Source of the DNA: Magnetococcales bacterium
GTDB lineage: Bacteria > Pseudomonadota > Magnetococcia > Magnetococcales > JADGBX01
DNA: 64,000 nucleotides
Direction of reading: 5' to 3'
Assembly: GCA_015231265.1 (NCBI GenBank)
Contig: JADGBX010000003.1
Span: forward strand, 2,829 to 66,828
Shown piece after piece: positions 4,323 to 49,745 of the stretch. The translations under genes were made by a program, and so were the position numbers. The notes under the pieces are model-generated. The model made no database searches, was not told the DNA's origin, and worked only from the letters and a program-made list of their open reading frames with translations. Positions within the stretch are counted from its first letter, which is position 1. Each line of letters opens with the position of its first letter.

Positions 4323-4325
4323 GGT

Positions 4326-8909: not shown

Positions 8910-10541
8910 TCATGCCACCCGCGATGAGATCCGGGCTGCACCGCGTCCGGAGTCCTTGGCAGCGTAAAGTGCAACATCGGCGGATTTGAGCAGGGACTCC
9001 ATGGTTTCGCCGTGGTGGGGAAAGATGGCAATACCGATACTGACACCGATGGTGCAGATATGATCATCGATGGCGTAGGGCTGGGCGATATCGGTGTTGA
9101 CCCGCCGGGAGATGAACAACGCCTCCTCGGAACTGCCGCACTCCGGAAGCAGTGCTGCGAACTCATCCCCGCCCAGACGAAAGACCGTATCGGTCTCCCT
9201 CAACGCCTCCTGAAATCGCTCCGCCACCTCCTTCAGCAGCATGTCACCCACATCGTGGCCGAAGGTGTCGTTGATCGGTTTGAAGCGGTCCAGATCCATA
9301 TAGAGAATGGCAAAAGTACGCTCACCCACCCGTCGGTGACGACGCAGAACATGGGCCAGTTTCTGCTCGAACATGCGGCGGTTGCCAAGCCCGGTCAAAG
9401 CATCGCGCAGGGCGAGATCCTCCAGATCCTGTCGCTCCTGATGCAGAACCCGAATGTACTTGACCACGGCGTGGGCCGCCACGTCGAACCCCTGCTCAAC
9501 CATCTGGATCTCGTTGCGTGGACTCTCCCCCACCGATGAGAACCCCAATCCCTCCCCGGCACAGCGGTCGGTCAGAGCCAGCGCCTTCCCCTCAAGGCGT
9601 CGCATGGGGCGCAGTAGCAGCCCGTCGATCATGAACCCGAGCATCCCCAACAGAACCAACAGGGCAACGGTGGAGTATCCCAGTCGCCATTGGATCTCCG
9701 ACAGAATCTTGTGGTTGACGTTCATATCGAGCGGGACCACCAGACAGAAAGTCTCGTTTGAGATGCGGATCGGGGCGTAGTGCCAGCCCTGATTGCTCTC
9801 CTCGTTCAAGGTGGTGTAGGAGATCCCTTCCGAGATGGTTTTGCGAACGGTTGCGGTATTGAGGCGGATCCAGCTATCCCAGTCGAAAGCACCCCGGATC
9901 GAACTGTCCAACGTGGCAAAGAGTAGTTTGTCGCCGATGATCGACTCCACCTCCCGCTTCAATCCCTTCTCCACCCGTAACCCAGCGATTACACTACCCG
10001 CCACCTGGCCATCGAATACCAGCGGCGTCATCACCTTTACCACCCAGCGTTTGTCGAGCCGGGTCGTGAACTGGCTCCAACTTCCCCCCAACACCCGCGT
10101 CAACGCCGGCGAACGGTAGATATCGCCCGTAATCAGATGTTGCGCAGTGCTGTAGAGCACCTGTCCCTGATCGTCGGTGACGATCAGAAAATCGAGATTC
10201 ATGGTCATGAAGAAGAGATCCAGCTTCTCCATGTAGCGTCCGATTCCATCGGTTTTACCGGCAGTGCGGGCGTTCAGCATGGAGCGGGCGAGATCGGTAT
10301 CCTCCTCCCAGAAGAGGCGCATGATGTGGGAGAGTTCATTCACCTCGTTGCGGATGCCCATCTGGATACGGGAGGCGGTGGCATCGGCTTCGGAGATCAG
10401 TTTGTCGTTCAGGGTCTGGTGTAAAAACGGGTAGTTGATCGCATACCCCACCGCCAGGGTCACCATTCCCACAAGACAGAGCCCCCCGACCAATGGATAG
10501 ATCAGACTGATACGCAAACGAAGCGATCTCAAACGCCACAT
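8910..10541 (-). CDS. Membrane-bound diguanylate cyclase (GGDEF) with a periplasmic sensor domain
   Basis: 543 aa. There is an N-terminal TM segment, a roughly 250-aa extracytoplasmic region and a second TM segment. The GGDEF domain has RLGGDEFAALL and an RETD I-site five residues upstream. Confidence 0.85.
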   Translation of the reverse strand: MWRLRSLRLRISLIYPLVGGLCLVGMVTLAVGYAINYPFLHQTLNDKLISEADATASRIQMGIRNEVNELSHIMRLFWEEDTDLARSMLNARTAGKTDGIGRYMEKLDLFFMTMNLDFLIVTDDQGQVLYSTAQHLITGDIYRSPALTRVLGGSWSQFTTRLDKRWVVKVMTPLVFDGQVAGSVIAGLRVEKGLKREVESIIGDKLLFATLDSSIRGAFDWDSWIRLNTATVRKTISEGISYTTLNEESNQGWHYAPIRISNETFCLVVPLDMNVNHKILSEIQWRLGYSTVALLVLLGMLGFMIDGLLLRPMRRLEGKALALTDRCAGEGLGFSSVGESPRNEIQMVEQGFDVAAHAVVKYIRVLHQERQDLEDLALRDALTGLGNRRMFEQKLAHVLRRHRRVGERTFAILYMDLDRFKPINDTFGHDVGDMLLKEVAERFQEALRETDTVFRLGGDEFAALLPECGSSEEALFISRRVNTDIAQPYAIDDHICTIGVSIGIAIFPHHGETMESLLKSADVALYAAKDSGRGAARISSRVA

Positions 10542-23501: not shown

Positions 23502-23580
23502 AGGTGAGGTCTGGCCGGTCAGGTTTGAAATGTGTGGTTTATTACTACTCTGGTCCAGGGTAGGAGGTCCGAGGAGTTTG

Positions 23581-23614
23581 AGGCAGCACCTCAAAGGTGT
23601 TGCCTTCTTTTTTT
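23581..23614 (+). terminator. Rho-independent terminator after the Na/Pi gene
   Basis: aggcagcacc-tcaaa-ggtgttgcct (10-bp stem with one G-U pair, 5-nt loop) followed by tcttttttt. Confidence 0.7.
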
Positions 23615-23788: not shown

Positions 23789-23816
23789 TTGACGGTGTGT
23801 TTGAGAAATCTACAAT
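23789..23816 (+). promoter_or_regulatory. Candidate sigma70-type promoter for the TPS operon
   Basis: TTGACG (23789-23794), a 16-nt spacer, then TACAAT (23811-23816), about 80 nt upstream of the tpsB start. Confidence 0.35.
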
Positions 23817-23898: not shown

Positions 23899-26800
23899 AT
23901 GGTGAGCAAGAGGATATCTGAAAGAGATGAGAGCGTTTACCTCGTTGTGTTGATCCGATATGTTCGTGTTCGGCAGAGTGTATATGGAATCCGTCTGAGC
24001 ACCTTCGTCTTCGCATTGCTGGTTTTATTCCTATTCCAGCAGACAGCTTACGCTGTACAGTCGCCAACAGTTTCGCCGAGAAGACGTGAGATCCTGGTTG
24101 ACCCTCAGGTTATCATGGATCGCGTTACTGTTGAGGAAGTGACTTTACCGTCAATTATACATAAGGTGCTGAACAGGCTACCAAGCACTCCCTATTCTCC
24201 GCTCCCCTTTCCTCCCCCCCTCTCCAAAACAGATAAGATCGTTCTGCCCACAGCGCTTCCCAGAAGGCGCAACCTGCTCGCCTATGACTCGGTGGATAGC
24301 GCCTCTCCCCGGTATCAGAGACCGCGTTTGCCGATCTCCTCTCCAAAAAGACGCCAGCAACTGCAGAGTCCCGTGGCTGGAGAAGGATTCCTTTCACTGG
24401 CAAGTGTCCGCCTGCCGTCTGCCCTGCCTTTGAACAGAGCAGCACTGCCAAATCGTCTGCCCTCCTCGCCGCTTTCAAAGACGCAGAGAGAGTCGTTGCC
24501 GACGATCTCTCCAAGAAGGCGCGCTGTTCATTCTTTTCAATCGACACGCATTTCCACTGTCAATCTGACGGAAGTGGTCTTGCCGGAGGTGAATCCGAGG
24601 AAGCAAGAGAAAAAGTCAACCACTGAGGCTGCCAAAACCCCACTGCCGAAGGCGACGCCACTCGCACGAGAGAAAGAGCCGTCAGTCGAGGTAGCGAAAA
24701 CCCCACTGCCGAAGGCGACGCCCCTTGCACGTGAAAAAGAGCCGTCAGTCGAGGTAGCGAAAACCCCACTGCCGAAGGCGACGCCCCTCAGCCGTGTGCA
24801 AGAGTCCTCTGCAGAGGTGGTTAAAAGGGCTTTTTCCCAGGTGAGCCCACGTAAGCGCGTGCAAAGTGCTTCTGTCAACGCGGCCAAGACGGAACTTCCA
24901 GAGGTAGCACCAAAGAAGCAAGAGAGAGAACCCTCCATCACGGTGGCGAAAACGGTGCTTCCAGAAGCGAAGCCTCTCAAACGCAAGACGGAGCCGCCTG
25001 TTGAGGTTGCCAAAGCGGTCATGCCGGAGACTAAGCCGCTCAAACGCGACGTTGTTGTTGACTATTTTGAGTCCAACAGAGTATCTGGGCTGGAGAGAAT
25101 TGAAAGACCGAAGCCCAAGCCCATGAAGCGCCTGGCCTCCGTGGAAGCTGCGTATCGGTCGTCAAAGGCAACGCCTTGGAAGCACGGTGCCGTTCCTGAA
25201 CAACGGTTGGCAGGGCAGGGCAGTGAGGAGGCGTTGGATACCCAGTGGCCAGCCGTACAACCCAAGAGACGTGAAACTTCCCCGCTGTTGGAGCGCGGGC
25301 AGGAAGATCACGTTACGACGCCCGAAGTGTTGACCAAGAGCGACCGGAAAAGCGCCTCTCCTTGGACGAGCAGTGATGTTCCCGCACAGATGTTGCAAGG
25401 TGAGTCGGTGCGCGAGCAGGTACTCGAAACGTTGACGGATGCTCTCGCCCACCATGCAGAGTTGCCGGAACAGCCGAAAAAACAGACATCCACAACAGTG
25501 GCACGGGCCAAGCCCCGTTCAGTACAGCGCGTAACACGTGGATTGTTGCTGGATGAGCCGGTTGAGGAAGCGCCTTCCAAGGCACCGAGGGCGATCTCTC
25601 CAACGTTTGATATGACACCGTTTGCAGCGCCTGAAGAGTATGTGCTTCCCCCTCTGGAAGAGATGGATGAAGATCTGGCGGAATTGACAGCGGTTGAGAC
25701 CTTCTCCATTGATGCTATCCAGGTGGTCGGCAGTACCGTCCTGTCAGAGCAGGAGATTGCTGAACTCAGCGCCCCCTATCTCAATCAGGCGGTGACGTTG
25801 GAAGAGCTCTACATGCTGCGTGACGCTCTGACTCGGCGCTATATCGACCGTGGTTATGCGACCTCAGGAGCCGTGTTGGAGGAGCAGGAGATCGGTGATG
25901 GGACAGTACTGATTCGCATCATCGAGGGCCAACTGGATCAGATCATCATCACCGGCAACGACAAACTGCGGGAGAGCTTCATCCGTGATCGCCTGCAACC
26001 CACCTCTTCGGGGCCTTTCAACGTCAAGGAGCTGGAGCAGCGTTTGCAGCTTCTGAGACAGCAGCCGATGATCGAGAACATCCGTACCGAAGTGCGACCG
26101 GGTGTTAAACAGGGGTTGGCCGTGCTCACCGTAACGGTGGAGGAGGCGAAACCGTTACAGCTCGGTGTCTCCTACGGCAACCGAAGTGCCCCCAACGTCG
26201 GCACCATCAGACGAGGGATCGAAGGAACCTACCATCCATTCGGTATTGGTGACATCTTCACCGCCAGTTTTGGCCGCTCCAGAGGTGCGGTGGAGTATAA
26301 TCTCTCCTACAGCCTGCCGATCAACGCCAAGGATACCACTCTGTCGTTCGGTTTCAGTGAAAGCACCTCCGTGGTGGTTGTCGCTCCCTTTGCCGAGTTG
26401 AATATTACAAGTGAGAACACCACCTGGTACGCTGCGATTGAGCACCCGTTTTACCGCGACGTCAATCACGAGCTTTCCGCCTCCCTGAAGTGGCAGGGAC
26501 GGGTGAGCCAAACCTCGCTGCTGGGGCTGCCCTTCTCCTTCACTGAAGCGGCCGACAGAGGGGAGACCCGGATCAACAGCGTGCATCTCGGACAGTCTTG
26601 GATCTATCGGGATGCCAGACAGGTGCTCACCACCTCCTCCGAGTTCAATCTCGGTGTTGCCATCGGTGATGTGACCGATAATCCCACGACGGCGGATGGC
26701 CAATATCTCGCCTGGCTGGGACGCAGTCAGTACGTGCGGCAGTTCGACTTTCTGGAGAGCCGGGCCATCGTCCGCTCCTCCCTGCGTCTGACCGATACGC

Positions 26801-27198
26801 CCATGCTGCCGACGGAGAAATTCACCATCGGCGGTTCCAGCACCGTGCGCGGTTATCGGGAGAGCGTCATCTCCCGCGATCAGGGCATGACAACAACCGT
26901 GGAGTGGCAGGTGCCGACGTCTCTACGCATGCCCTTTCCCTATGTGAGCGCACCGGACAGCGACGGTCAGGTCTCTTTGGCCGCCTTTTACGACTATGGC
27001 AAGAACTGGGATAAGATCGAGGACTCCACCGACCCTGAAGACCTCTCAAGTTATGGCTTCGGGGTGCTCTGGTCTCTGAACAAGAACTCCACCGCCTCCT
27101 TCTACTGGGGACGGCCTCTACGCAATGTCAAAGTATCGGGAGATAAATACTCTCAGGATCACGGTTACCACTTCAACGTCAACATAGCGACCTTCTGA
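23899..27198 (+). CDS. TpsB (ShlB/FhaC-family) outer membrane transporter with a roughly 550-aa N-terminal Pro/Lys/Arg-rich extension
   Basis: 1099 aa. The C-terminal roughly 540 aa have a POTRA-like region (IDAIQVVGSTVLSEQEIAELSAPYLNQAVTLEELYMLRDALTRRYIDRGY) and a beta-barrel (FTIGGSSTVRGY, terminal ATF). The N-terminal half is low complexity after a signal anchor. Confidence 0.85.
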   Translation: MVSKRISERDESVYLVVLIRYVRVRQSVYGIRLSTFVFALLVLFLFQQTAYAVQSPTVSPRRREILVDPQVIMDRVTVEEVTLPSIIHKVLNRLPSTPYSPLPFPPPLSKTDKIVLPTALPRRRNLLAYDSVDSASPRYQRPRLPISSPKRRQQLQSPVAGEGFLSLASVRLPSALPLNRAALPNRLPSSPLSKTQRESLPTISPRRRAVHSFQSTRISTVNLTEVVLPEVNPRKQEKKSTTEAAKTPLPKATPLAREKEPSVEVAKTPLPKATPLAREKEPSVEVAKTPLPKATPLSRVQESSAEVVKRAFSQVSPRKRVQSASVNAAKTELPEVAPKKQEREPSITVAKTVLPEAKPLKRKTEPPVEVAKAVMPETKPLKRDVVVDYFESNRVSGLERIERPKPKPMKRLASVEAAYRSSKATPWKHGAVPEQRLAGQGSEEALDTQWPAVQPKRRETSPLLERGQEDHVTTPEVLTKSDRKSASPWTSSDVPAQMLQGESVREQVLETLTDALAHHAELPEQPKKQTSTTVARAKPRSVQRVTRGLLLDEPVEEAPSKAPRAISPTFDMTPFAAPEEYVLPPLEEMDEDLAELTAVETFSIDAIQVVGSTVLSEQEIAELSAPYLNQAVTLEELYMLRDALTRRYIDRGYATSGAVLEEQEIGDGTVLIRIIEGQLDQIIITGNDKLRESFIRDRLQPTSSGPFNVKELEQRLQLLRQQPMIENIRTEVRPGVKQGLAVLTVTVEEAKPLQLGVSYGNRSAPNVGTIRRGIEGTYHPFGIGDIFTASFGRSRGAVEYNLSYSLPINAKDTTLSFGFSESTSVVVVAPFAELNITSENTTWYAAIEHPFYRDVNHELSASLKWQGRVSQTSLLGLPFSFTEAADRGETRINSVHLGQSWIYRDARQVLTTSSEFNLGVAIGDVTDNPTTADGQYLAWLGRSQYVRQFDFLESRAIVRSSLRLTDTPMLPTEKFTIGGSSTVRGYRESVISRDQGMTTTVEWQVPTSLRMPFPYVSAPDSDGQVSLAAFYDYGKNWDKIEDSTDPEDLSSYGFGVLWSLNKNSTASFYWGRPLRNVKVSGDKYSQDHGYHFNVNIATF
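24631..24819 (+). repeat. 63-bp in-frame tandem repeat x3 inside tpsB (AKTPLPKATPLAREKEPSVEV)
   Basis: Units at 24631-24693, 24694-24756 and 24757-24819. The first two are near identical and the third diverges in its second half. Confidence 0.85.
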
Positions 27199-29402
27199 TG
27201 GCACACCGCCTGTTCACACTCATGCTGCTGATTGCCGTCGTGACCCTTCCAGCCACAGGTTGGGGAGAGGATGAGGCGGCGATGGTCGATGTGGACGAGG
27301 TGATCCGGCAGGTGGAAGAGATGGTGCCCCGTGCCGCCTCCCATCAAGCGGCGGGTCACTATGTGGAGGCGGGTGTCGCCTTGGGAGAGGCGCTGGCGTT
27401 GGCGAAAACCACCCCGTCACCTCTGGACAACGTCTATGTGCTGATCGCCCTGAGCGATTTTCATCTGGCGATTGGCCAGCGGGACCAGGCGATGGCCGAC
27501 ATCGAAGAGGGGTTAACGTTAATCGGTGATGAAAGTCAGCCCCTCCTGCACGCCAGATTGTTGAATAATCGCGGTAATGTTCATGTGGTCTCCTACCGGT
27601 TCGAGAAGGCGGAGCAGGACTATCGACAGGCGTTGGCACAGGCTGAAACGGCAGGGAATGGGGCGATGGTTGCCGATCTCCTGGCGAACCTCACCCAGGC
27701 GCTCTTCCAGTCGGGGCGCCACACCGATGCCGCTGCGATCCTGGAGAAGGCGGTAGAGGCGACCCGCCATCTGCCGAAAGATCAGCACACCGCCTTCGGA
27801 ATGGTCTCTCTGGGAAAACTGGCCTTTACGCTCAAACTCCAGGAACAGACGCTCTCCTCACGGCTGATTCTGACCGCCCTGACCCTGTTCAAGTCGGCGG
27901 TGACGATTGCCAAACCTCTCAACGACGCGCGCATTCTCTCCTATGCCTACGGCTATCAAGGCCGACTCTACGAATATGAGAAGCGGTTCAAGGAGGCGGA
28001 GCATCTCACCAAGAAGGCGATCTTCTACGCCCAATCCGTCTCCGCTGCCGAGATTCTCTACCAGTGGCAATGGCAGAGCGCCCGACTGGCCCAGGCGCAG
28101 GGGAGGAGCACCCAGGCAATAACCGCGCTCCGCACGTCGGTGGCGACCTTGAGCATCGTCCGTCCCGATCTCTATCGGGGTCTGCGCAACGCCCCGGACT
28201 CCTTCAGAGATCTCATCGGGCCGATCTACTACCAGCTGGCTGACCTGCTGTTGCAGAAGGCCAACACGGTAGAGGATCCAGCCCTGCAAAAAGGGCTGCG
28301 GATCGAAGCACGCAACACCATCGAAGCGCTGAAGAGTGCCGAGATTCAGGATCTGTTTCAGGATGAGTGCGTCGCCGCGCTGAAGGCCAAGGAGACCTCC
28401 CTTGATACGGTGGCGGCGGATACCGCCATCTTCTACCCCATCCTGCTTGCGGATCGGGTGGAGCTGCTGCTCACATTGGCCGACGGGTTGCACCGCTTCT
28501 CGGTGCCGATCGGTAAGGCGACGGTTGAGGGGGAGGTTCAACAGCTGCGGGTGAAGCTGGAGGATGTGGCGAGCGACGCCTATCTTCCCCACGCACAACG
28601 TCTCTATCAGTGGTTGATCACGCCGATGCTCGACACACTGAAAGAGCAGAAGGTCGATACGCTGGTGGTGGTGCCCGATGGAGCGTTGCGGACCATTCCT
28701 CTGGGTGCTTTGCAGAGTGGAGATACTTTTCTGGCCCAGCAGTTCGCCCTGGCCACCACGCCGGGTCTCCGTCTCACCGATCCCAAAGCGCTGCCCCGTA
28801 CCGATGTTCGAATTCTTGCCGGAGGGCTCTCCGAGGCAGTGCAGGGATTCTCCGCCCTGCCCAATGTGCCCAAGGAGCTGGAGACCATCCGCACCATCTT
28901 CCCCAGCGATGTGTTGCTGAATGAGCAGTACACCGTCGATGAGATCGTGCGCTCTCTGTCGAAGACCTCCTATCCCATCGTTCACATCGCTTCTCACGGT
29001 CAGTTCGACCGAGATCCGGCCAAGACCTTTCTGCTCGCCTACGACGACAAACTGACCATGAACACCCTGGAGCTGATGATCGGCCATGGCCGTTTCCGTG
29101 AGCAGCCGGTGGAGCTGCTGACACTTAGCGCCTGTCAGACCGCCGTCGGCGATGATCGTGCCGCTCTGGGTTTGGCCGGGGTTGCCATCAAGGCGGGGGC
29201 AAGAAGCGCCCTGGCGACGCTCTGGTTCATCGATGATGCGGCGACGGCCACCCTGGTGGCGGAGTTCTACCGTCAGTTGCAGAACCCGAAACTCTCCAAG
29301 GCGGACGCTCTGCGCAACGCCCAGAGTCTGTTGATCAAGGATCCACGCATGCAGCACCCGGGGTTTTGGGCGGCGTTTATCCTGATCGGCAACTGGTTGT
29401 AA
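27198..29402 (+). CDS. Secreted TPR-CHAT protease (clan CD, caspase-like)
   Basis: 734 aa with signal peptide MAHRLFTLMLLIAVVTLPATGWG. TPR-like N-terminal half. The CHAT domain has VHIASHG (His codon 28995-28997) and LTLSACQT (Cys codon 29133-29135). The start overlaps the tpsB stop (TGATG). Confidence 0.85.
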   Translation: MAHRLFTLMLLIAVVTLPATGWGEDEAAMVDVDEVIRQVEEMVPRAASHQAAGHYVEAGVALGEALALAKTTPSPLDNVYVLIALSDFHLAIGQRDQAMADIEEGLTLIGDESQPLLHARLLNNRGNVHVVSYRFEKAEQDYRQALAQAETAGNGAMVADLLANLTQALFQSGRHTDAAAILEKAVEATRHLPKDQHTAFGMVSLGKLAFTLKLQEQTLSSRLILTALTLFKSAVTIAKPLNDARILSYAYGYQGRLYEYEKRFKEAEHLTKKAIFYAQSVSAAEILYQWQWQSARLAQAQGRSTQAITALRTSVATLSIVRPDLYRGLRNAPDSFRDLIGPIYYQLADLLLQKANTVEDPALQKGLRIEARNTIEALKSAEIQDLFQDECVAALKAKETSLDTVAADTAIFYPILLADRVELLLTLADGLHRFSVPIGKATVEGEVQQLRVKLEDVASDAYLPHAQRLYQWLITPMLDTLKEQKVDTLVVVPDGALRTIPLGALQSGDTFLAQQFALATTPGLRLTDPKALPRTDVRILAGGLSEAVQGFSALPNVPKELETIRTIFPSDVLLNEQYTVDEIVRSLSKTSYPIVHIASHGQFDRDPAKTFLLAYDDKLTMNTLELMIGHGRFREQPVELLTLSACQTAVGDDRAALGLAGVAIKAGARSALATLWFIDDAATATLVAEFYRQLQNPKLSKADALRNAQSLLIKDPRMQHPGFWAAFILIGNWL

Positions 29403-29523
29403 GGCATATGTAAGAGGGAATGGAATACGATGGATTGGGTGTGTTGGTAGTATTCATACACAGCGGGTCATTGCTTGAGACACTCTTCGGCAGTCATCGG
29501 CTTAGCATTGCGTCGTTAAATCG

Positions 29524-32500
29524 GTGACGGATCAACATTTTCGTAGAGTGGTCTTGAGGGGACTTATGGACGGCTTTCGTTTGTTTAAGCGGTATGCAGC
29601 TGTTTCTTGTGGTGTGCTGTTTCTGTTTGGCACTGCATTGAATGGGCACGCGGGAGGTGTTGTCTTGGATGGCACGCTCGGAGCGGCTGGCTCCATCCCC
29701 AATTCAAGTGGTACGTTCAGCATTCTTCAGGGATATGGGACGACCTCTGGTACCAACCTGTTCCACAGCTTCAGCAGTTTTAATCTCGACAACGGGGAGA
29801 CTGCCGATTTCCAGGGCAGCGGCATCACCAACATCATTTCACGGGTGACGGGTGGCTCGTCTTCCACCATCAACGGTAGGATCAGGTCCAGTATCGCCGG
29901 AGCCAATCTCTACCTGCTCAACCCCAACGGCGTCATTTTCGGCGAGTACGGTAATCTGGACCTCAGCGGTTCGTTTCATGTCACGTCGGCAGACTATCTG
30001 AATTTTGGCTCCGGCAACCGGTTTAATGCCAACCCCGTGACGACCAGCCAATTGGTCTCGGTGGATCCGGTCTCCTTCGGTTTCCTTGACGCCACCCCCG
30101 CTCCGATCACTTTTCAGGGAACTGGTTCCCTTCTGTTCAAACTCTTGCTTTCCAATCATCCAGGCATGGAGGTTGGCACCGGTAAGACCCTCTCGGTGAT
30201 CGGGGGAGATATCTCGCTTCTTGGATTAGGTGACAAATATAACTATGCCGCTGCCTATAATAATTTGAACTACGAGGTAATGACCCGCCTTCAGGCACCG
30301 GGAGGGCGTATCAATATTGCGAGTGTCGCCTCTGCTGGCGAGGTGACCATCGGTGCCTCGGATCTGACACTCGGTGATGGACAGGTTGGCGGTGATATCA
30401 TTATGAACAATCGCTCCTACCTGCGTGTTAGCGGTGACGGTACAGAAGGTATCTACATCCGTGGTGGCACCATGGATATCAACGAAGGCCTGATGGACAG
30501 TTACGAGTTCGCTGGTGGCGACGCAACGATCGATATCCGCCTCCAGAAATCATTGACAATGAGCAACAGAACTCAAATCTGGCTGGAGAATTCCGGGACC
30601 TCTGACGCTTCCGGGATTGTGCTGGAAGCTCCGACGATTAGCCTGGACGGTTACTATACAACTCTATACTTGATGAATGAGTCAGCCAGTAAGGTCGGAA
30701 GCTTTAGCATAACGGCTTCCGAGAGTCTTTCAATCAATGACACCCTTGTCTATTCAGGGGCCAGCGATTCGGGGGCTGGTGGTGACATCGTTATTACCAC
30801 ACCCGATCTCACCGTCAGTTATGAGAGTATAATCATAAGTGCAGTCTTACAGGGAGGGACTGGGCGGGGAGGTGATCTCATCGTGAATGTTGACACCTTG
30901 GATATTGATTCCCAGGGTTCCAGCTATTGGGAGAACGGGATTTACTCCTTCACTGTCGCTGGTTCGACCGGAGACGCTGGGGACATCATCGTCAACGCCT
31001 CGGAGAGTGTGATTATCCAGGGCAACAAGAGCACCATCTTATCCAAGACGAGGACGAGTGGAAAGAGTGGGGTCATCTCCATCACGACTCCTGAATTGAC
31101 CCTTGATGATACCGCTACGATCATCACGCGTGCGGAGTCTTCCGGCTCGGCTGGGGACATCACCCTGAAGGTGGCAACACTCGGTATGAATGCTTCCATC
31201 TATGGAGATACCCAGATTAAGTCCAGCACAGTGGAATATGGCAATGCGGGGGCCATTACTATCACGGCCACGGACTCCATCTCGATGACCGGCGTAACGT
31301 CAAGCTATAGGTATGCTGGTATCTATACAGACGCTACTGATGTAAACAACCCGTATGTGGATGATATCACCCCCACAGGCCGTGGTGGGGATATCACGAT
31401 CACCACGCCGAAACTCACCATGTCGACCGCTCAGATTGCGACGGGAACAAGGGGGGCCGGTGCTGTTGGCGACATCTCGATGACGTTGGATGCTCTGTCA
31501 ATGACCGGTTCCTCCACCATCTCCAGCAGTACACTTGGCGATGGAGCAGGTGGTGATCTTGTCATTTCGGCATCCAAATCCATCACCATGGTAGGTGACG
31601 GCGTTTATAGTGGTGGTATTTATTCAAACAGCGGTGGATCTGTCTTTACGAGCGAAGAGAGCTTTGGCAGAGGAGGCGAAGCGGGCGACATTTCCATCAC
31701 AACGTCTGATATGGTGATGCGAAATGGATTTAGTATCTTATCGGAAGCGTCCTACGCCAACGATGCCGGCAACATCACCCTGGATGTTGACAGGCTTTCA
31801 ATAACCTCCGCTGCCAAGTTAGCGATGATTGGTACGAGAACATACGGATTGGGTCGGGGCGGTGATATAACGATTACGGCTTCCGAATCTGTTGTTTTGG
31901 CCAGTACTCAGGCATCCATCGCTAATATCGGTGCGGGGAGTTGGAAGGTCAATGGTCCAGGCTACACACCGGGTGGTGATGGTGGCAATATTGCGATTAT
32001 AACGCCGGATCTTACGTTAAATCCGGGAGGCGGCATCAGTGCCTTGACTCAAACTGACGGAGATGGCGGATCAATCACCTTGACGGTGGACACGTTGAGC
32101 ATTACCGCTGGGAATACATATCACACGGTCATCTCTACCAACACTTGGGAGGGTGATGGGGATGCTGGTGATATCACTATCACAGCGTCTGAATCAGTTT
32201 CTATCACGAGAGGGGATGACTCGATCTGGCACTTGGCCGGTATCAGTTCGGAAGCTAAAGCGGGGACAACGGGGAATAGCGGCGATATCTCCATCACGGC
32301 ACCTGACCTTTCCGTTAACACAGGTGCCTATATCAGCGCCAGTACCGAGATCTCAACCACAGGAAGTAGCGGCTCAATCACCCTGGATGTAGATACCCTG
32401 ACCATAGCAGGCGGTAATGGTGTTCCAACCGAGATTACCGTCAACACGGATGGTGATGGCGATGCCGGCGACATTGTGATTACAGCCGCCAAGTCGGTTT

Positions 32501-34050
32501 CAATGACAAGAACGGATACGTCAGTGGGAGGGTTTAGCATCATCAGCTCCAATGCTGGCGTCGACGCCATTTCGGATGGTAAGGCAACCACTGGTGATGG
32601 CGGTAATATTTCGATTACAACACCTGAGCTTGATCTCAATGCAGGATTTATTCAAGCACTTGCCGCCTCCATTGGTGAGGGGGGATCGATCACAGTGGAC
32701 GTGGATAGTTTGACAATGACTGGGGATGCGGTCTACGGATCTGGAATCTCTGCCACGACCTATGGAACGGGTGCTGGTGGAGAGATTGTCATTAAGGCGA
32801 CTGATTACGTCTCTCTTTCATCTTTGGAAGGGAGCGAAGAAACAACCATCAGCGTCAGTTCAACCCTATTGAAAGGCTCGACAACAGGTGGTGGTAGTGG
32901 TGGCAGCCTCACACTCACAACAGATTCTCTCATCCTCGACGACGGCGGTGTCATTGAGGCCAAGGCGTACGCTTCCGGAGCTGGTGGCAACATCCTCCTT
33001 AATGTGGGTAGTTTGTCCATCACCGGTGGTACCTCGACTGCCGAAACCGGTATCTATGCAGATAGCCACAGTTCAGGAGCGGGTGGTAACATCACGATCA
33101 ATGCAGACAGCTCGGTGTTGATCTCCAAGAACGGTGATTCGGGAACCGGAATCTCCGCCAGTACCGGCACGGCCCATACCAAGGGAGCACACATTGGCGA
33201 TGACGGTAGCGGTGGTGCCGGCGGTAACATCACGATCACGGCGTCCTCACTCACCCTCACCTCGGATGGCGGTATCGGCGCCCAGACCGAAGGCAGCGGG
33301 GATGGGGGCAACATCGCCCTGACCACGACCAATACCAACATCAACAGCGGCGGCAGGATCTTCTCCGACAGCACCTCCTCGGCGGATGATGCCGGCGCGG
33401 CTGGCGACATCACCTTGGTCGCATCGAGCACCCTCTACATCGACAACGGATCGATCACCCTGGAGTCGGTCAACGCCGACGGTGGTGATATCACCATCCT
33501 GGTCACCGACACCATCGGTCTGACGGACGCCACCATCTCCACTTCGGCCAACGGTGGCTCCGGTAGTGGCGGCAACATCTTCATCGACCCGATTGTCTTC
33601 TACATGAAAGGCGGAACCAGTATCACCGCCGACGCCGTGGGTGGTGCTGGCGGTGGTATCACCATTGTCGCCCAGAACTTTTTCCAATACCCCGGCAGCA
33701 CCATCAGCGCCTCCTCCGCATTCGGTCTCAGCGGCACCGTTGATCTTGACACCCCTGATTCCACTGTCGCCGATAGCCTCGAAGCGATGCCGGACAAGGT
33801 TTTTGACGCAACCGCTCTGATGCGAGAACGGTGTAGCACCCGTGGTGGGGGAGGGGGCAGCCACTTCGTCATCAGTGGCCGTGGCGGCATGCCCACCACA
33901 CCGGGTGATCTTCGTGCCAGCTCCTCCGCACCGGTCGGTTTGGCCGGTGGTATGGGATCGGGTGGCGTGCTGCGTGTGAGCGGCGGAAGCGGCGGTGGTG
34001 GCGGGATGGTTGCCAGCGTTTCCGTGCTTCAAACCGGCTGTTCGTTGTAA
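29524..34050 (+). CDS. TpsA-type exoprotein (filamentous-haemagglutinin N-terminal TPS domain plus beta-helix repeats)
   Basis: 1508 aa. The TPS domain has NLFHSFSSFNL and NLYLLNPNGVIFG. It is followed by more than 25 degenerate GGDITIT(A/T)xxL units. The C-terminus is Gly-rich (FVISGRGGMPTTPGD...). The track start is GTG; an ATG at 29566 gives a better signal peptide. Confidence 0.85.
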   Translation: MTDQHFRRVVLRGLMDGFRLFKRYAAVSCGVLFLFGTALNGHAGGVVLDGTLGAAGSIPNSSGTFSILQGYGTTSGTNLFHSFSSFNLDNGETADFQGSGITNIISRVTGGSSSTINGRIRSSIAGANLYLLNPNGVIFGEYGNLDLSGSFHVTSADYLNFGSGNRFNANPVTTSQLVSVDPVSFGFLDATPAPITFQGTGSLLFKLLLSNHPGMEVGTGKTLSVIGGDISLLGLGDKYNYAAAYNNLNYEVMTRLQAPGGRINIASVASAGEVTIGASDLTLGDGQVGGDIIMNNRSYLRVSGDGTEGIYIRGGTMDINEGLMDSYEFAGGDATIDIRLQKSLTMSNRTQIWLENSGTSDASGIVLEAPTISLDGYYTTLYLMNESASKVGSFSITASESLSINDTLVYSGASDSGAGGDIVITTPDLTVSYESIIISAVLQGGTGRGGDLIVNVDTLDIDSQGSSYWENGIYSFTVAGSTGDAGDIIVNASESVIIQGNKSTILSKTRTSGKSGVISITTPELTLDDTATIITRAESSGSAGDITLKVATLGMNASIYGDTQIKSSTVEYGNAGAITITATDSISMTGVTSSYRYAGIYTDATDVNNPYVDDITPTGRGGDITITTPKLTMSTAQIATGTRGAGAVGDISMTLDALSMTGSSTISSSTLGDGAGGDLVISASKSITMVGDGVYSGGIYSNSGGSVFTSEESFGRGGEAGDISITTSDMVMRNGFSILSEASYANDAGNITLDVDRLSITSAAKLAMIGTRTYGLGRGGDITITASESVVLASTQASIANIGAGSWKVNGPGYTPGGDGGNIAIITPDLTLNPGGGISALTQTDGDGGSITLTVDTLSITAGNTYHTVISTNTWEGDGDAGDITITASESVSITRGDDSIWHLAGISSEAKAGTTGNSGDISITAPDLSVNTGAYISASTEISTTGSSGSITLDVDTLTIAGGNGVPTEITVNTDGDGDAGDIVITAAKSVSMTRTDTSVGGFSIISSNAGVDAISDGKATTGDGGNISITTPELDLNAGFIQALAASIGEGGSITVDVDSLTMTGDAVYGSGISATTYGTGAGGEIVIKATDYVSLSSLEGSEETTISVSSTLLKGSTTGGGSGGSLTLTTDSLILDDGGVIEAKAYASGAGGNILLNVGSLSITGGTSTAETGIYADSHSSGAGGNITINADSSVLISKNGDSGTGISASTGTAHTKGAHIGDDGSGGAGGNITITASSLTLTSDGGIGAQTEGSGDGGNIALTTTNTNINSGGRIFSDSTSSADDAGAAGDITLVASSTLYIDNGSITLESVNADGGDITILVTDTIGLTDATISTSANGGSGSGGNIFIDPIVFYMKGGTSITADAVGGAGGGITIVAQNFFQYPGSTISASSAFGLSGTVDLDTPDSTVADSLEAMPDKVFDATALMRERCSTRGGGGGSHFVISGRGGMPTTPGDLRASSSAPVGLAGGMGSGGVLRVSGGSGGGGGMVASVSVLQTGCSL

Positions 34051-34056
34051 TCGCAA

Positions 34057-34989
34057 ATGGTATCACTGCCAGGAGATAGACGGATGATGGCCAGGATAGG
34101 TTGGCGCTCTCTGAGTGTTCTTGCTCTGATGGTTCCCGGAGCGGTTCAGGCACAGGACTGCACCCTTGCCGATACCCTCTACGAGCGCTCCCGGAGGAGC
34201 CCCGAGCAGCGTTTGGCACTCCTGACCGAGGCGCACGAGATCTGTCCCACCCATGTAAAGGTCATCAACAACCTGGCCGTTGTTCTGGAGAACAGGGGTG
34301 AGTTGGCTAAAGCCGAAGCGCTCTACCAGGAGGCTGTCCGCCTCCAACCCTCTCTGATCGCTGCCTATGCCGGGTTGGGGGATGTGCAGGCTGCCACGGG
34401 TCGCTATCGAAATGCCGCCGCCTCCTATCGGCTGTTTCTTGATCTGCTCAAGGCGGAGCGTCAGACCGGTAATAGCTCACCACTGCTCAAGCATGAAGAG
34501 GCTTACCGGAAGAGATTGATCACTGCGCAGGCGAAGGTGGATAACACGCAGGTGATCCCTGCCTCTGAAATCGTAGACGCCCTCGCTGGACCTGCCATCG
34601 TTTCGCAGGGAAAGCGCGGTCTCCAGAGGCGGGTACGTCTGCCCACCATCGATACCCACATCCACTTCGCCACCAACACCGACCAGATTGAAGAGGCGTC
34701 ACGGGAGCAACTGCTTCAGATCGCCCAGGCGTTGAACGCCTCATCTCTGGAGACCTTTACAATTCGCATCGATGGTCATACCGATGCCCAAGGGTCGGAC
34801 AGCTACAATCAGGGGCTCTCCAAAAGACGGGCGGAGCGGGTTCGACAGGTCTTGATCGAACTGGGGATCTCCGAAACCCGTCTCGAAGCGCTGGGCCGGG
34901 GAGAGAGTACTCCCATCGCCTCCAATGACGATGCGCATGGCCGCGCGCTCAATCGCCGCGTTACCTTCGTCAATCTCGGGCAACGGTGA
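34057..34989 (+). CDS. TPR plus OmpA-C-like peptidoglycan-binding protein
   Basis: 310 aa with a signal peptide and TPR units. The C-terminus is IDGHTDAQGSDSYNQGLSKRRAERVRQVLIELGI...NRRVTFV (OmpA/MotB fold). The start is 7 nt after the tpsA stop. Confidence 0.8.
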   Translation: MVSLPGDRRMMARIGWRSLSVLALMVPGAVQAQDCTLADTLYERSRRSPEQRLALLTEAHEICPTHVKVINNLAVVLENRGELAKAEALYQEAVRLQPSLIAAYAGLGDVQAATGRYRNAAASYRLFLDLLKAERQTGNSSPLLKHEEAYRKRLITAQAKVDNTQVIPASEIVDALAGPAIVSQGKRGLQRRVRLPTIDTHIHFATNTDQIEEASREQLLQIAQALNASSLETFTIRIDGHTDAQGSDSYNQGLSKRRAERVRQVLIELGISETRLEALGRGESTPIASNDDAHGRALNRRVTFVNLGQR

Positions 34990-34995
34990 AGGGGA

Positions 34996-35952
34996 TCACT
35001 CCGCACGCAGCGGCAGGGCATCGATGCGCCCTTCATGGAGTGTTACGGGGAGGCGCTTCAGCAGGTTCTGAATATGGAGAATCTCTCTCTGGCGTTTGAT
35101 CTGCTGGAGGAGTTCTCTCTCGATGAGAGGACGAACCTCCGCCAGTGGCCGGTAGTCGCCGGGGCGTTTTTCCATGAGCTGCAACAGATGCCACCCCTGA
35201 GGGCTGGCAATGGGCAGGCTGATGGTGCCGGGCTGCATGGACTGAACAATGGGCACCAGTCCGGGCATGAGCTGATCGAGTGGCAGCCAGCCCATATCCC
35301 CTCCCTCTTCAGCACTGGCCCGATGATCCGAATGGGTTTTGGCTAGGGAAGAGAAGAGGCTGGGCCTGTCCTGGAGGGCATTGAAGAGAGTTTTGATCTT
35401 CTGTTCGATCTCGGCTTGGTGCGCTTCAGACGCAGTATCGGGTACCGCCAGATAGATCTGGGCGATGTGAACGTGGTCGGTCTGGCGAAAGCGCTCTCTG
35501 TTCTGTTCATACCACCTCTCCACAACCTGATCGGAGGGTGGTTTCAAGCCGGCGCGGGATTGTTGATCCATGTAGCGAGCAACCAGAGCCTGCTCGGCAG
35601 CACGCTGCATCAGAAACTGGCTCTCAGGGTGGCGGTCCACCCCTTTTAGAATAGCCTCTTTGAGGAGATAGCGTTTGATCATCTCCTCTTTGACCAGTTT
35701 GTAAACATCTTCCGGTTGATTGGCCAATCGTGCGGCCTCATCCGCTCCCTTGGAGCGGATGAGAAGAGCCACTTCGTCAGCAAGGAGCTGTTTATCCCCC
35801 ATCTGGGCGACGATTGACGATGGAGCGTCAGGTGCGTGCGAATCCATCGTCCCGGACGTTCCCGTCTGTTGGGAGCCGGTCTGACAAGCGGTGAGCACGA
35901 GCGACAGCAAGATCGGGACAAGGGTTCGAAGGCGCAATCGAGAGCGGACCAT
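34996..35952 (-). CDS. Lipoprotein peptidyl-prolyl isomerase (parvulin/PpiC type, SurA-like)
   Basis: 318 aa with lipobox LVLTAC. Rotamase domain HVHIAQIYL...GGDMGWLPLDQLMPGLVPIV...GWHLLQL. Confidence 0.75.
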   Translation of the reverse strand: MVRSRLRLRTLVPILLSLVLTACQTGSQQTGTSGTMDSHAPDAPSSIVAQMGDKQLLADEVALLIRSKGADEAARLANQPEDVYKLVKEEMIKRYLLKEAILKGVDRHPESQFLMQRAAEQALVARYMDQQSRAGLKPPSDQVVERWYEQNRERFRQTDHVHIAQIYLAVPDTASEAHQAEIEQKIKTLFNALQDRPSLFSSLAKTHSDHRASAEEGGDMGWLPLDQLMPGLVPIVQSMQPGTISLPIASPQGWHLLQLMEKRPGDYRPLAEVRPLIERELLQQIKRQREILHIQNLLKRLPVTLHEGRIDALPLRAE

Positions 35953-36117
35953 TGAGGATGGCTTTCATGCGGAATTGGGCTCGGAACGACTGGTGGTCAA
36001 GCCGCCGCCCAGGGGGGATGGAATCAAATAGTATGATTGGAAATGTCTCATGAAACACCATATTTGTCAATCTGTTGAGTCTCTTTCGTCGTGGTGTGCC
36101 TTGGCGGTGGTTCGCCC

Positions 36118-37935
36118 ATGAAGGTCTGGAGATGTGTGGCGTTCGTCTTGGGGTTGGTGGTGGCGGTTCTTGCCGTTCCGGTTGAGGCATCCGAGGCTCC
36201 TGCTACGCGGCGCGTTGCCCTTGTGATCGGTAATTGGCACTACACGAACTCCCCGCTGTTCAATCCCGAGCACGATGCGCAGGGCATGTCTGACTCTTTG
36301 AAGCGGTTGGGCTTCGATGTGATCTACCGAACCAACGTGGATAAAAAGGGGTTTCGGCAGGCGGTCAGAGCGTTCGGGGACGCTATTAGGGGCGCCGGTG
36401 TCGGGCTCTTCTATTATGCTGGCCATGGCATTCAGGTGAATGGGCAGAACTATCTGATCCCGGTCGGTGCCGATATTCAGCGGCAAGACGAGGTGATCGA
36501 CGAGGCGATCGCGGCCAATCTGGTGTTGCGAAAGATGGAGCGGGCGAAAAACCGTCTGAACATCGTGATGTTGGATGCTTGCCGTGACAATCCGTTCACA
36601 CGCAGTTGGCGAACGCGGGGAGGGCGTGGCCCTGGTCTCGCGCAAATGGATGCGCCGAGCGGAACGATCATCTCCTATTCGACCTCTCCGGGGTCGGTCG
36701 CCTCGGACGGCACCGGCAAGAATAGCCCCTACACCAAACATCTCCTGCACAACATGAAGGTGCCGGGACTGGCGATTGAGCAGCTGTTCAAACGGGTTCG
36801 CATCGGAGTTGATGAAGAGACGGCGGGACGGCAGACTCCTTGGGAGTCCTCTTCATTGAAAGGGGATTTTTTCTTCACGCCTGGCAGTCAGGGTTCGCAT
36901 GCTCCAGCATCGGCTTCCTCGATAGGTCCGTTTTCTGACGAAAGGGAGGCTCAGGAGAGCCTGGATGGGAGGATCGCCCGCCTTTCGCAAGCCCTCATGA
37001 AATCTGCTCGAAACAGATCGGTCTACGTCCACCCCATCGTGGAGTCTACACAGCGCTATGCTTCCGATTTTTCACGCTATTTAACGCTAAGAATCAAGAC
37101 ATTCATGGTGAACTCCAGATCAGTCACGGTGATGGATGGCAGCCAACTGCTTGCCCTTCTGGCACGTCATCAACAGGAGAGTTCGGTCCAGAGAGTGTTG
37201 GGGAGCGGAGGCCGTATCGATGAGGCCTCTCTGCTTGGAGCCGATCTGCTGCTGGATGGGATCTACTTCGTCAATGACACGTCGGTGGATGTCACCCTCT
37301 CTCTCAAGACACTCTCCGGTGAGACCGTGACGACGATTGATGAGAGCTTTCCCAAAGCGCGCATCACAATGCCTCTCGATAATGCCGAGCTGAAAACCGT
37401 GGCGCGCATCGCTGATACGGTCCAGCAGTCCGGTGATGCCGATGTTGTCCATCTCAGCACCACCCGTGGTGGAAGGCATCCCGTCTACCTGGAGGGGGAG
37501 ACCATCCAGTTCATGACACGTGTGACACGTCCGCTGTTCATCTATCTCTATGGTTACAACGCTAAGGGTGAGGTGGTGCGGCTCTATCCGGGTGATGGCG
37601 AGCAGCAGGTTCCTTTGCGTCCCGGGCGGGTGCATCGAACACCCGATGACGATGACTCTTGGGAGATCGGTGTTACCCCTCCATTCGGAACCGATACTGT
37701 GAAACTGTTTGCCAGTACCCAAGCGTTGCCCGTTCCCCGCTTGGATCAAACAGTCGCTTCCAAGCGCATTGAAACCGTTGGGCAGGGTGTTTCACGTACA
37801 AGAGCGATTAAGCCGAGCCCATTGTCCAAAAGAATCAATCCTGTGGATCTTGTCGACTACTTTCGGGAGCAGGCACGTCGATTGGATGCTGAACTGTTTG
37901 AAGATAGCGTTGTCGTTGAGACTCGTAAGTTGTAA
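36118..37935 (+). CDS. Secreted caspase-family (peptidase C14) protein with a C-terminal DUF4384-like domain
   Basis: RVALVIGNWHYTN, YYAGHGIQ (His codon 36424-36426) and VMLDACRDNPF (Cys codon 36580-36582). The C-terminal region has the DUF4384 look (IYLYGYNAKGEVVRLYP). The track ORF starts at GTG 36091; ATG 36118 gives signal peptide MKVWRCVAFVLGLVVAVLAVPVEA. Confidence 0.8.
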   Translation: MKVWRCVAFVLGLVVAVLAVPVEASEAPATRRVALVIGNWHYTNSPLFNPEHDAQGMSDSLKRLGFDVIYRTNVDKKGFRQAVRAFGDAIRGAGVGLFYYAGHGIQVNGQNYLIPVGADIQRQDEVIDEAIAANLVLRKMERAKNRLNIVMLDACRDNPFTRSWRTRGGRGPGLAQMDAPSGTIISYSTSPGSVASDGTGKNSPYTKHLLHNMKVPGLAIEQLFKRVRIGVDEETAGRQTPWESSSLKGDFFFTPGSQGSHAPASASSIGPFSDEREAQESLDGRIARLSQALMKSARNRSVYVHPIVESTQRYASDFSRYLTLRIKTFMVNSRSVTVMDGSQLLALLARHQQESSVQRVLGSGGRIDEASLLGADLLLDGIYFVNDTSVDVTLSLKTLSGETVTTIDESFPKARITMPLDNAELKTVARIADTVQQSGDADVVHLSTTRGGRHPVYLEGETIQFMTRVTRPLFIYLYGYNAKGEVVRLYPGDGEQQVPLRPGRVHRTPDDDDSWEIGVTPPFGTDTVKLFASTQALPVPRLDQTVASKRIETVGQGVSRTRAIKPSPLSKRINPVDLVDYFREQARRLDAELFEDSVVVETRKL

Positions 37936-37955: not shown

Positions 37956-38483
37956 ATGTCTCATATAAAGTGCTTCAGTCACTCTCTCGGAGTGCTCACT
38001 ATTGCCCTCTTTGTTCACATTCTCATGCTTCTTCCCATTCAGTCGCTGGAAGCGGCCAATATCGGGGAACGATTCGGGGATTGGATGCATGAGTGTGAGG
38101 CGGTTGCTCCAAACAAGACCAACTGTTTCATCTCCCAGACACAGGTGATGAAGGAGAGTGGAAAGCTGGTTGTGTCAATCGTCATGGGCAAGTTGGGGGC
38201 AGATCGACAACCAGGCATTCTCGTGACCGTACCGATCAGCATTTTTCTCCCCTCGGGTGTTGTTGCTAAGATTGACGAAGGCAAACAGTTCGACCTGTTG
38301 CTTCAGAAGTGCTTCCCGGCAGGCTGTCGAGCTACCGCCGCGCTTACAACTGCCCAGCTTAGGGCATTGAAATCCGGCAATAAGATATTCATTGCCTACA
38401 AGAATACCCCCCGTGCCGAGCCCATTGTTCTTCCAGTTTCTCTAAAAGGGGTCACCGCGGGGTTTGCAGCTATCGGAATGTGA
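37956..38483 (+). CDS. Invasion-associated locus B (IalB)-like periplasmic protein
   Basis: 175 aa with a signal peptide. W..C......C and C.P.GC cysteine spacing (FGDWMHECEAV..NCFISQ, LLQKCFPAGCRA) is typical of IalB-family proteins. The stop TGA is the first 3 nt of an IS3-type inverted repeat. Confidence 0.6.
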   Translation: MSHIKCFSHSLGVLTIALFVHILMLLPIQSLEAANIGERFGDWMHECEAVAPNKTNCFISQTQVMKESGKLVVSIVMGKLGADRQPGILVTVPISIFLPSGVVAKIDEGKQFDLLLQKCFPAGCRATAALTTAQLRALKSGNKIFIAYKNTPRAEPIVLPVSLKGVTAGFAAIGM

Positions 38484-41159: not shown

Positions 41160-41378
41160 ATACACTGCAAGATACTTATGAAAGTGTAGTTCTTGATTTG
41201 ATTGCATGTTATTGGCATTGATGGTGCATGTGCTCTCTAAATGTTCGTCAAATAATCTCATGAAAATATTTAACGAACAAATAGGATCCTGGTGTATCCG
41301 GTGTAGAGCCTGATTTGCGTGAATGGGGGAGTTGCGGCTTCATGATGATTCGTATTGATCGCCATAGAATACATTGAA

Positions 41379-43604: not shown

Positions 43605-43647
43605 AGGCGACGCCTTCGATAGAGGCAGAATTGATCCTCTTTGTACA

Positions 43648-48399: not shown

Positions 48400-48400
48400 C

Positions 48401-49744: not shown

Positions 49745-49745
49745 C

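Follow-up and report, generated by a model that had tools for sequence, protein, structure and literature searches.

The 64-kb window analyzed here (the whole 64,000-nt stretch from a Magnetococcales bacterium) carries a two-partner secretion (TPS) locus on its plus strand, at 23899–34989. An open reading frame (ORF) check and Pfam confirmed four ORFs there, tpsB, a TPR-CHAT protease gene, tpsA, and a TPR-OmpA gene, with the order and coordinates proposed in a first-pass annotation of this DNA. Its domains make the locus a genuine TPS system and its protease a genuine CHAT protease. Our main finding is that it belongs to a widespread TPS subfamily in which a dedicated TPR-CHAT protein is the third core component. 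The subfamily is apparently undescribed: full-text literature searches found no paper joining "CHAT domain" with two-partner secretion, hemagglutinin, or CHASE2, in agreement with the earlier remark that no functional study of the arrangement was known. A functional coupling of CHAT to TPS is near certain. As to what the protease does, we favor, with slightly better than even confidence, a model in which periplasmic CHAT binds and cuts a conserved C-terminal tail of TpsA, thereby controlling maturation or release.

Surveys in both directions support the coupling. A first look at the neighborhoods of nine CHAT homologues revealed ShlB-CHAT-TPS arrangements or shuffled versions of them, often with DUF928 and CHASE2 cyclase genes present. 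A survey with one genome per GTDB species gave at least 593 CHAT relatives, and 80 loci were fetched. Hidden Markov models (HMMs) were built from proteins of the first loci and applied in a six-frame scan, and neighbors within 8 kb of CHAT were counted at the 41 loci that had at least 5 kb on both sides. A TPS-domain gene with the conserved tail was found at 34 loci (83%), DUF928 at 28 (68%), TpsB at 27 (66%), a CHASE2 receptor at 16 (39%), and an OmpA-like gene at one (2%). TPS-linked CHAT loci spanned at least eight phyla (Nitrospirota, Pseudomonadota, Desulfobacterota, Verrucomicrobiota, Cyanobacteriota, Myxococcota, Zixibacteria, and Abditibacteriota). Gene order varied, with TPS-TpsB-CHAT-DUF928 in Nitrospira, TpsB-CHAT-TPS in Magnetococcales, CHAT-DUF928 in Verrucomicrobia (where the other strand carries TpsB and TPS), TPS-CHAT in cyanobacteria, and further differences in Alphaproteobacteria. 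Order is shuffled while membership is kept, suggesting functional linkage and not inherited synteny.

The reverse survey started from the TpsA tail. We searched annotated plasmids by tblastn with the tail only (116 aa), which yielded 49 records, mostly cyanobacterial, and examined 16 loci. CHAT lay within 9 kb in 13 of the 16, 12 of them detected by HMM; the thirteenth was Nostoc PCC 7120 pCC7120alpha, which has an annotated CHAT gene at the locus edge. The first-pass annotation had allowed that CHAT might be absent from orthologous TPS loci and thus a chance neighbor; the two surveys (34/41 and 13/16) place it at these loci.

In some relatives, the two proteins are joined. A phmmer search of 1.84 billion representatives with the CHAT protein returned 5825 clusters (50% identity) at E ≤ 1e-30. 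Among the best 150 of these clusters, 14 exceeded 1000 aa, and 12 of the 14 were TPS-tail-TPR-CHAT fusions; another of the 14 was a CHAT-DUF928 fusion (P0337). A 2093-aa protein of Desulfobacterales (locus L061) combines TPS domain, beta-helix, tail, and TPR-CHAT in a single chain, and the 1756-aa AM1_RS30030 of Acaryochloris does the same. The fused CHAT part at L061 has no signal peptide, and a separate paralogue nearby keeps one. In every TPS-CHAT fusion, the tail motif lies directly between the beta-helix and the protease. Two other apparent fusions were discarded: a ShlB-CHAT fusion (L032) was an artefact, produced by an ambiguous base (X) where the two parts join, and a 1479-aa ORF (L062) was a high-GC read-through.

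The window TpsA begins with a Sec-like signal (KRYAAVSCGVLFLFGTALNGHA) followed by an N-terminal TPS domain, which also matches TIGR01901 (6e-19). The first-pass annotation saw no obvious toxin domain in it, and it has none; the TPS domain is the sole Pfam match. Its C terminus belongs to a module of ~140 aa common to CHAT-associated TpsAs (alignment of 67 tails, and further alignments). The module runs from the last beta-helix turns through a cap (ASSxGxxGxVxIxxP) and a linker (LxxLP...LL) to an invariant Cys and the motif SSFxxxGRxGLPxxPGxxLxS, in which one Pro is invariant and at least 90% of tails have the Arg. In ~70% of tails there is a variable stretch that ends in a second Cys near the C terminus, and 26 of 56 mature TpsAs contain no Cys other than the tail Cys and a second one two to nine residues from the end. 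For the window tail, the tail HMM gives a match of 7e-51. This tail contains the invariant C1437, the segment SHFVISGRGGMPTTPGDL with the near-invariant R1453, a Gly-rich spacer, and C1506. C1437 and C1506 (positions −72 and −3 from the end) are the only Cys of the mature protein.

The tail had been described previously simply as Gly-rich; the spacer is indeed there, but the key feature is the conserved, disordered, Cys-bearing motif instead. In the AlphaFold (AF2) model, the beta-helix is confident to about residue 1400, and the conserved tail has a predicted local distance difference test (pLDDT) score below 50. The tail is conserved yet predicted to be disordered, as is characteristic of linear recognition motifs. 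The region has no Pfam or NCBIfam match in the window, and homologues have no precomputed Pfam domain there. A homologue search with the window tail alone found two proteins, with Gly-rich words dominating the candidates, and was repeated with an alignment. A resemblance between the tail and the N terminus of DUF928 (G-R-G-like motifs in both) was considered and rejected (hhalign probability 0.06%).

The middle gene encodes an intact TPR-CHAT protease that is predicted, from its sequence, to be periplasmic. The protein has 100% identity to an NCBI entry, in line with the origin of the window from a Magnetococcales metagenome-assembled genome. A CHAT domain, a conserved His-Cys dyad, and a caspase-hemoglobinase fold (the fold taken from the AF2 model) place it among the clan CD caspase-fold peptidases. 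The first-pass annotation had reported a signal peptide and an intact dyad in SHG and SACQ motifs: the N terminus, MAHRLFTLMLLIAVVTLPATGWG, is Sec-signal-like, the motif coordinates are exact, and H600 and C646 are invariant among 26 homologues from Magnetococcales, Chromatiales, Azospirillum, Nostoc, and others. Also invariant in this alignment are the LSACxTAxGD block, D652, and D680. Most CHAT homologues have a signal peptide, and some have a lipobox; sequence identity is 35%–56% across phyla. The AF2 model (pLDDT 86, predicted template modeling score 0.83) aligned over its full length in Foldseek with craspase Csx29 (1e-15) and DdvA (3e-13), and separase was also among the top matches. Identity in these matches was 11%–17% (11%–14% for Csx29, 17% for DdvA). 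A PDB sequence search with the CHAT profile was dominated by TPR-only matches. The model, the dyad, and the signal peptide together led us to expect an intact periplasmic enzyme. A role in anti-phage defense was tried and rejected, as PADLOC gave only weak domain-level matches, including a BovA CHAT-domain match.

TpsB is an Omp85-type transporter encoded on the tpsA strand 2.3 kb upstream of tpsA, as is typical of type Vb secretion, to which the TPS domain and Sec-like signal of TpsA also point. Its Pfam matches (POTRA_2 2.7e-20, POTRA 8.3e-08, ShlB 1.9e-22, and Omp85 3.1e-14) cover aa 602–1096. The protein is as long as 1099 aa because a Pro/Lys-rich N-terminal extension of ~550 aa, unmentioned in the first-pass annotation, follows a signal-like segment at about aa 33–52. 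The extension is 13% Pro, rich in Arg and Lys, and holds a tandem repeat and twelve spaced LP..xP[KR][KR][RQ] motifs (SPRRR, SPKRR, PLKRK, and similar). An HMM of the extension had no match in any other TpsB of the fetched loci. The extension might span the periplasm as a tether or supply an array of protease sites.

In the favored model, TpsB would export the beta-helical TpsA N-terminus first, and the conserved disordered tail would remain on the periplasmic side. A C1437–C1506 disulfide probably closes a loop of ~70 residues in the window tail. This loop may act as a cork or anchor in TpsB, like the HMW1/HxuA anchor or the CdrA C terminus, and in the fusions the bulky protease itself may cork TpsA. 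CHAT, probably by way of its TPR/helical half, would dock on the tail motif. Candidate cut sites are the bond after the near-invariant Arg in GRxG(L/M)P and the linker that precedes the invariant Cys. The cut would mature TpsA or free it from TpsB, in cis in the fused relatives and in trans in the window. In Magnetococcales, the peptidoglycan-bound TPR-OmpA may serve as an anchor and the parvulin lipoprotein as a chaperone.

Several points weigh against this model, starting with the fact that proteolysis of TpsA by CHAT is something we infer. The conserved motif sits between the two Cys, inside the putative disulfide loop, so a cut alone would not part the chains, and the second Cys is missing in ~30% of tails. 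Arg at the P1 position is a guess, since CHAT specificities vary between families (separase cuts after Arg, and craspase after Leu or Met; PMC11506125). Three of the 16 tail-bearing TpsA genes have no CHAT nearby, namely those of Azospirillum argentinense, Pseudanabaena PCC 7367, and one truncated locus. Conversely, 17% of CHAT loci lack a TPS gene within 8 kb, and at L008, L070, L015, L043, and L060 the sole partners of CHAT are DUF928 or CHASE2. Together with the CHAT-DUF928 fusion, such loci suggest that CHAT may have other or additional substrates. Finally, the fusion architecture would also suit an exported C-terminal effector. At the A. argentinense locus (plasmid p3, L094), a gene for a trypsin-like peptidase (PF13365, PF00089) lies directly downstream on the opposite strand, at 9514–10206; it may be a non-homologous replacement of CHAT.

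The alternative that survives best, though we still consider it unlikely, makes CHAT the hub of a periplasmic signaling system with DUF928 and the CHASE2 receptor as its real substrates or partners, TpsA and TpsB as input or scaffold but not substrate, and the window locus as a degenerate remnant. It would account for the frequency of DUF928 and CHASE2 beside CHAT (68% and 39% of the 41 loci), for the five TPS-less pairs listed above, and for fusion P0337. However, the commonest neighbor of CHAT is TPS, TPS-CHAT fusions outnumber the CHAT-DUF928 fusion by 12 to one, and the tail has no similarity to DUF928. Moreover, all six Magnetococcales loci, which have neither DUF928 nor CHASE2, keep the invariant dyad beside TpsB and TpsA.

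DUF928 genes and CHASE2 receptors (class III nucleotidyl cyclases and others) can be seen, for example, at L001 9066–14899, L097 12386–18269, and L092 12743–15957. The neighbors of CHASE2 include DUF1822 in both Nostoc PCC 7120 and Anabaena cylindrica and, in the former, also a gene of the sigma-70 family. DUF928 had a single, unrelated mention in the full-text literature searches.

A second possibility, already raised in the first-pass annotation and in our view slightly less likely, is that CHAT is cargo or an effector, exported by TPS to the surface or to target cells in the manner of CdiA-CT toxins, with the tail as a pre-effector junction like VENN. The order of the fusions (TPS domain, beta-helix, conserved motif, C-terminal enzyme) is indeed the layout of polymorphic TPS toxins (PMC5422565). 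But the window, like most loci, encodes CHAT separately, as a protein that has a Sec signal of its own and lacks a TPS domain, which leaves it no known route via TpsB. CHAT is also conserved across phyla and not polymorphic, a small immunity-like gene was not found after it, and the tail is conserved even where CHAT is separate.

A wider reading, to which we assign a similarly small probability, sees TpsB-CHAT-TpsA as the core of ancient envelope signaling, in which a DUF928-gated tail cut would signal to CHASE2 cyclases or kinases; or CHAT could be a PorU/GPI8-like transpeptidase that joins the TpsA tail to an envelope component. The window would then be a minimal, receptor-less version.

Improbable, too, is a general quality-control role, in which CHAT would degrade stalled TpsA with no specific site, as DegP does for FhaB. 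Periplasmic DegP and CtpA are reported to act on FhaB (PMC8263021), and a parvulin chaperone gene lies nearby. Against this, a conserved linear tail motif, kept in the cis fusions, and a TPR docking domain point to site-specific recognition, and housekeeping would not need a dedicated operon-encoded enzyme. A chance neighborhood of unrelated genes, for which only the 121–163 nt gap between CHAT and tpsA speaks, is refuted by co-occurrence of 83% and 81% in the two directions, by shuffled order in at least eight phyla, and by repeated fusions.

With the tail-cutting model as the favored one, we return to the layout of the locus (Table 1). The first-pass annotation called the whole operon tightly coupled. 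This is right for tpsB and CHAT, whose stop and start share a real TGATG overlap at 27196–27200, and wrong for CHAT and tpsA, where the spacing of 121–163 nt means that the pair is not tightly coupled. The gap between tpsA and the OmpA gene had been given as 7 nt and is 6 nt on recount; a better-supported start of the OmpA gene, ATG 34084 with AGGAGA in front, widens it to ~33 nt. The TpsA length of 1508 aa is correct from the ORF start, but the likelier start at ATG 29566, preceded by GAGGGG, gives a product of 1494 aa. In the spacer between CHAT and tpsA (29400–29570, plus strand), a predicted fold pairs the GAGGGG ribosome-binding site. A regulatory RNA there was rejected, with a fold z-score of only −1.85 and no Rfam matches.

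Table 1. Features of the TPS-CHAT locus and its immediate surroundings in the window
Feature	Position	Strand	Basis or remark
Terminator-like hairpin of the preceding Na/Pi transporter gene	23580–23606		upstream of operon start
Promoter-like site upstream of tpsB	23789–23816	+	consensus scan, 10/12 matches, weak
tpsB, Omp85/ShlB-type transporter, 1099 aa	23899–27198	+	Pfam and translation
tpsB N-terminal extension, aa 53–600	24055–25698	+	
tpsB extension, 63-bp tandem repeat	24634–24804	+	
tpsB POTRA domains	25702–26145	+	Pfam
tpsB barrel	26122–27195	+	Pfam
TPR-CHAT caspase-fold cysteine protease, 734 aa, predicted periplasmic	27198–29402	+	Pfam, alignment, AF2
CHAT protein signal peptide	~27198–27266	+	
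CHAT protein TPR/helical region	27291–28397	+	
CHAT domain, aa 465–732	28590–29393	+	PF12770, E 3.5e-60
SHG (S599-H600-G601)	28992–29000	+	
H600 codon	28995–28997	+	
SACQ (S644-C646-Q647)	29127–29138	+	
C646 codon	29133–29135	+	
tpsA, beta-helical exoprotein, likely start ATG 29566	29524–34050	+	Pfam, TIGR01901, AF2
TPS domain, aa 46–281	29659–30366	+	PF05860, E 1e-36
TpsA NPNG, aa 133–136	29920–29931	+	
TpsA conserved C-terminal module	33577–34047	+	tail alignments, AF2, Cys census
TpsA cap ASSxGxxGxVxIxxP	33709–33756	+	
TpsA disordered tail motif	33772–33912	+	
C1437 codon	33832–33834	+	
R1453 codon	33880–33882	+	
C1506 codon	34039–34041	+	
TPR-OmpA periplasmic peptidoglycan-binding protein, likely start ATG 34084	34057–34989	+	Pfam OmpA 7.5e-22, and TPR
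PPIC/parvulin-type peptidyl-prolyl isomerase lipoprotein, lipobox LTAC	34996–35952	−	Pfam Rotamase 1.5e-19

ShlB, CHAT, and tail-bearing TpsA occur together in six of six Magnetococcales loci, in the order ShlB-CHAT-TPS in five; the sixth, L091, has its TpsA gene upstream. The window has the full module, a tail-bearing TpsA with CHAT between tpsB and tpsA. DUF928 and CHASE2 are absent from the 64 kb of the window and from the other five loci. In this lineage the module is a reduced form that has OmpA and parvulin as accessories. TPR-OmpA, whose signal peptide ends ...AVQA|QD, had been counted as part of the operon; the gene is present, but it is a lineage-specific accessory and not core, being found in two of the six loci (the window and Magnetococcus YQC-5 locus L090, E 5e-43) and at one of the 41 loci elsewhere. 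A PPIC-type rotamase adjoins the module in three of the six, directly upstream of tpsB in L089 and L091, and a peptidyl-prolyl isomerase also occurs in the Nostoc PCC 7120 cluster. The convergent parvulin gene of the window, just beyond the coordinates given in the first-pass annotation, probably belongs to the TPS-CHAT system as a periplasmic chaperone. It is plausible that TPR-OmpA and the parvulin act as peptidoglycan-anchor and periplasmic chaperone accessories outside the core.

A gene for a second clan CD protease, a Peptidase_C14 caspase (E 7e-39), lies 1.1 kb downstream at 36091–37935 on the plus strand. Its product carries a signal peptide, keeps the YYAGHG/DACRD dyad intact, and has DUF4384 at the C terminus; an IalB-family gene comes next (37956–38483, plus strand). 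Both were rejected as parts of the system, as they are next to none of the other TPS-CHAT loci. Farther away, the plus-strand cluster at 41355–51848 resembles an unusual type I secretion or efflux system and contains an OEP outer-membrane protein with a C-terminal SPOR domain, a 1583-aa protein in which DUF4347 is joined to an HlyD membrane-fusion domain, a second HlyD, and an HlyD fused to Peptidase_M50. The minus strand carries, at 2637–7181, a 951-aa autotransporter of type Va (beta-domain E 7e-35) and, after it, a TPR-sulfotransferase gene. LuxR-type (7842–8630) and GGDEF (8910–10541) genes are close by. The GC content of the window rises from ~0.51 to ~0.59 at roughly 12 kb.

TPS is generally presented as a pathway of two proteins (PMC5422565), and here is a large family with a built-in caspase-fold protease. 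TPS-linked members reach Nitrospira and, among tractable model organisms, the cyanobacteria Nostoc PCC 7120 and N. punctiforme, where they lie on plasmids; in N. punctiforme, the CHAT gene NPUN_RS34075 adjoins NPUN_RS34080, which encodes a tail-bearing TpsA. It offers a concrete substrate hypothesis for bacterial CHAT proteases that are predicted to be periplasmic; DdvA, the one experimentally characterized periplasmic TPR-CHAT protein that we found, has no identified substrate (PMC11506125). It also defines a sorting-signal-like tail that no Pfam or NCBIfam family covers, and it ties the poorly understood bacterial CHAT, DUF928, and CHASE2 sensor domains to a secretion step. If the signaling reading were true, it would supply a long-missing ligand logic for CHASE2.

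A 2017 review states that TPS operons do not include maturation protease genes (PMC5422565), and the known systems are instructive for comparison. The first-pass annotation held that the known TpsA maturation proteases are subtilisin autotransporters. Known TpsA processing is not confined to these: the periplasmic cysteine protease LapG cuts the tail of CdrA and thereby releases it (PMC5422565, PMC4694147). The likeness to CdrA/CdrB-LapG is close in outline, with a TpsA held in TpsB by a periplasmic tail, as proposed here, and a periplasmic cysteine protease that would cut it. Both show a link to a second messenger, through LapD and cyclic di-GMP for CdrA and, in many relatives of our locus, a CHASE2 class III nucleotidyl cyclase. 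Yet LapG is a transglutaminase-like protease (BTLCP) encoded outside the TPS operon and acts at a TAAG site, whereas the operon itself encodes CHAT, whose caspase fold (clan CD) bears a TPR arm. The window TpsA has no TAAG site, and its tail motif is unrelated. No LapD-like gene occurred among the Pfam-scanned window ORFs, in which no search was aimed at LapD.

In HMW1 and HxuA, two Cys at the extreme C terminus are proposed to form a loop that locks TpsA in or under the TpsB pore (PMC5422565). The window TpsA also has two Cys in its C-terminal region. In contrast to the short HMW1/HxuA anchor, they span ~70 residues (C1437–C1506) with a conserved motif inside and a dedicated protease alongside, and ~30% of tails have no second Cys. 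The FhaB C-terminal part is reported to stay periplasmic and to be removed stepwise by proteolysis (PMC5422565, PMC8263021). The FhaB prodomain is far larger, its removal reducing a ~370-kDa precursor to ~250 kDa (PMC4542190). SphB1, DegP, and CtpA, which serve FhaB/FhaC in Bordetella, are serine proteases encoded elsewhere, whereas CHAT is a cysteine protease encoded in the operon.

The protease shares its TPR-plus-CHAT architecture and His-Cys dyad with craspase Csx29, separase, and DdvA, the last a periplasmic TPR-CHAT anti-sigma factor (PMC11506125). It differs from them in lacking a CRISPR/gRAMP partner, a transmembrane or zinc anti-sigma domain, and a cohesin-type substrate; its partners are TpsA and TpsB. 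It is not a craspase: it has a Sec signal, and there are no Cas genes among the Pfam-scanned window ORFs. Nor is it a DdvA-like anti-sigma factor, as only a cleavable signal peptide precedes the TPR and a sigma factor gene is not adjacent.

Type V secretion reportedly has OmpA-like and parvulin helpers, with TpgA serving the trimeric autotransporter Ata in Acinetobacter and Par27 serving FHA in Bordetella. The window TPR-OmpA matches the TpgA family NF047726 (NCBIfam) weakly (3e-10, 39.7 bits), far below the cut-off of 350, and is therefore not a TpgA orthologue. It also differs from TpgA in its TPR N-domain, and the accessories occur in only two to three of the six Magnetococcales loci. In its logic, the locus resembles LapG-CdrA and the HMW1 anchor, and it is a member of neither.

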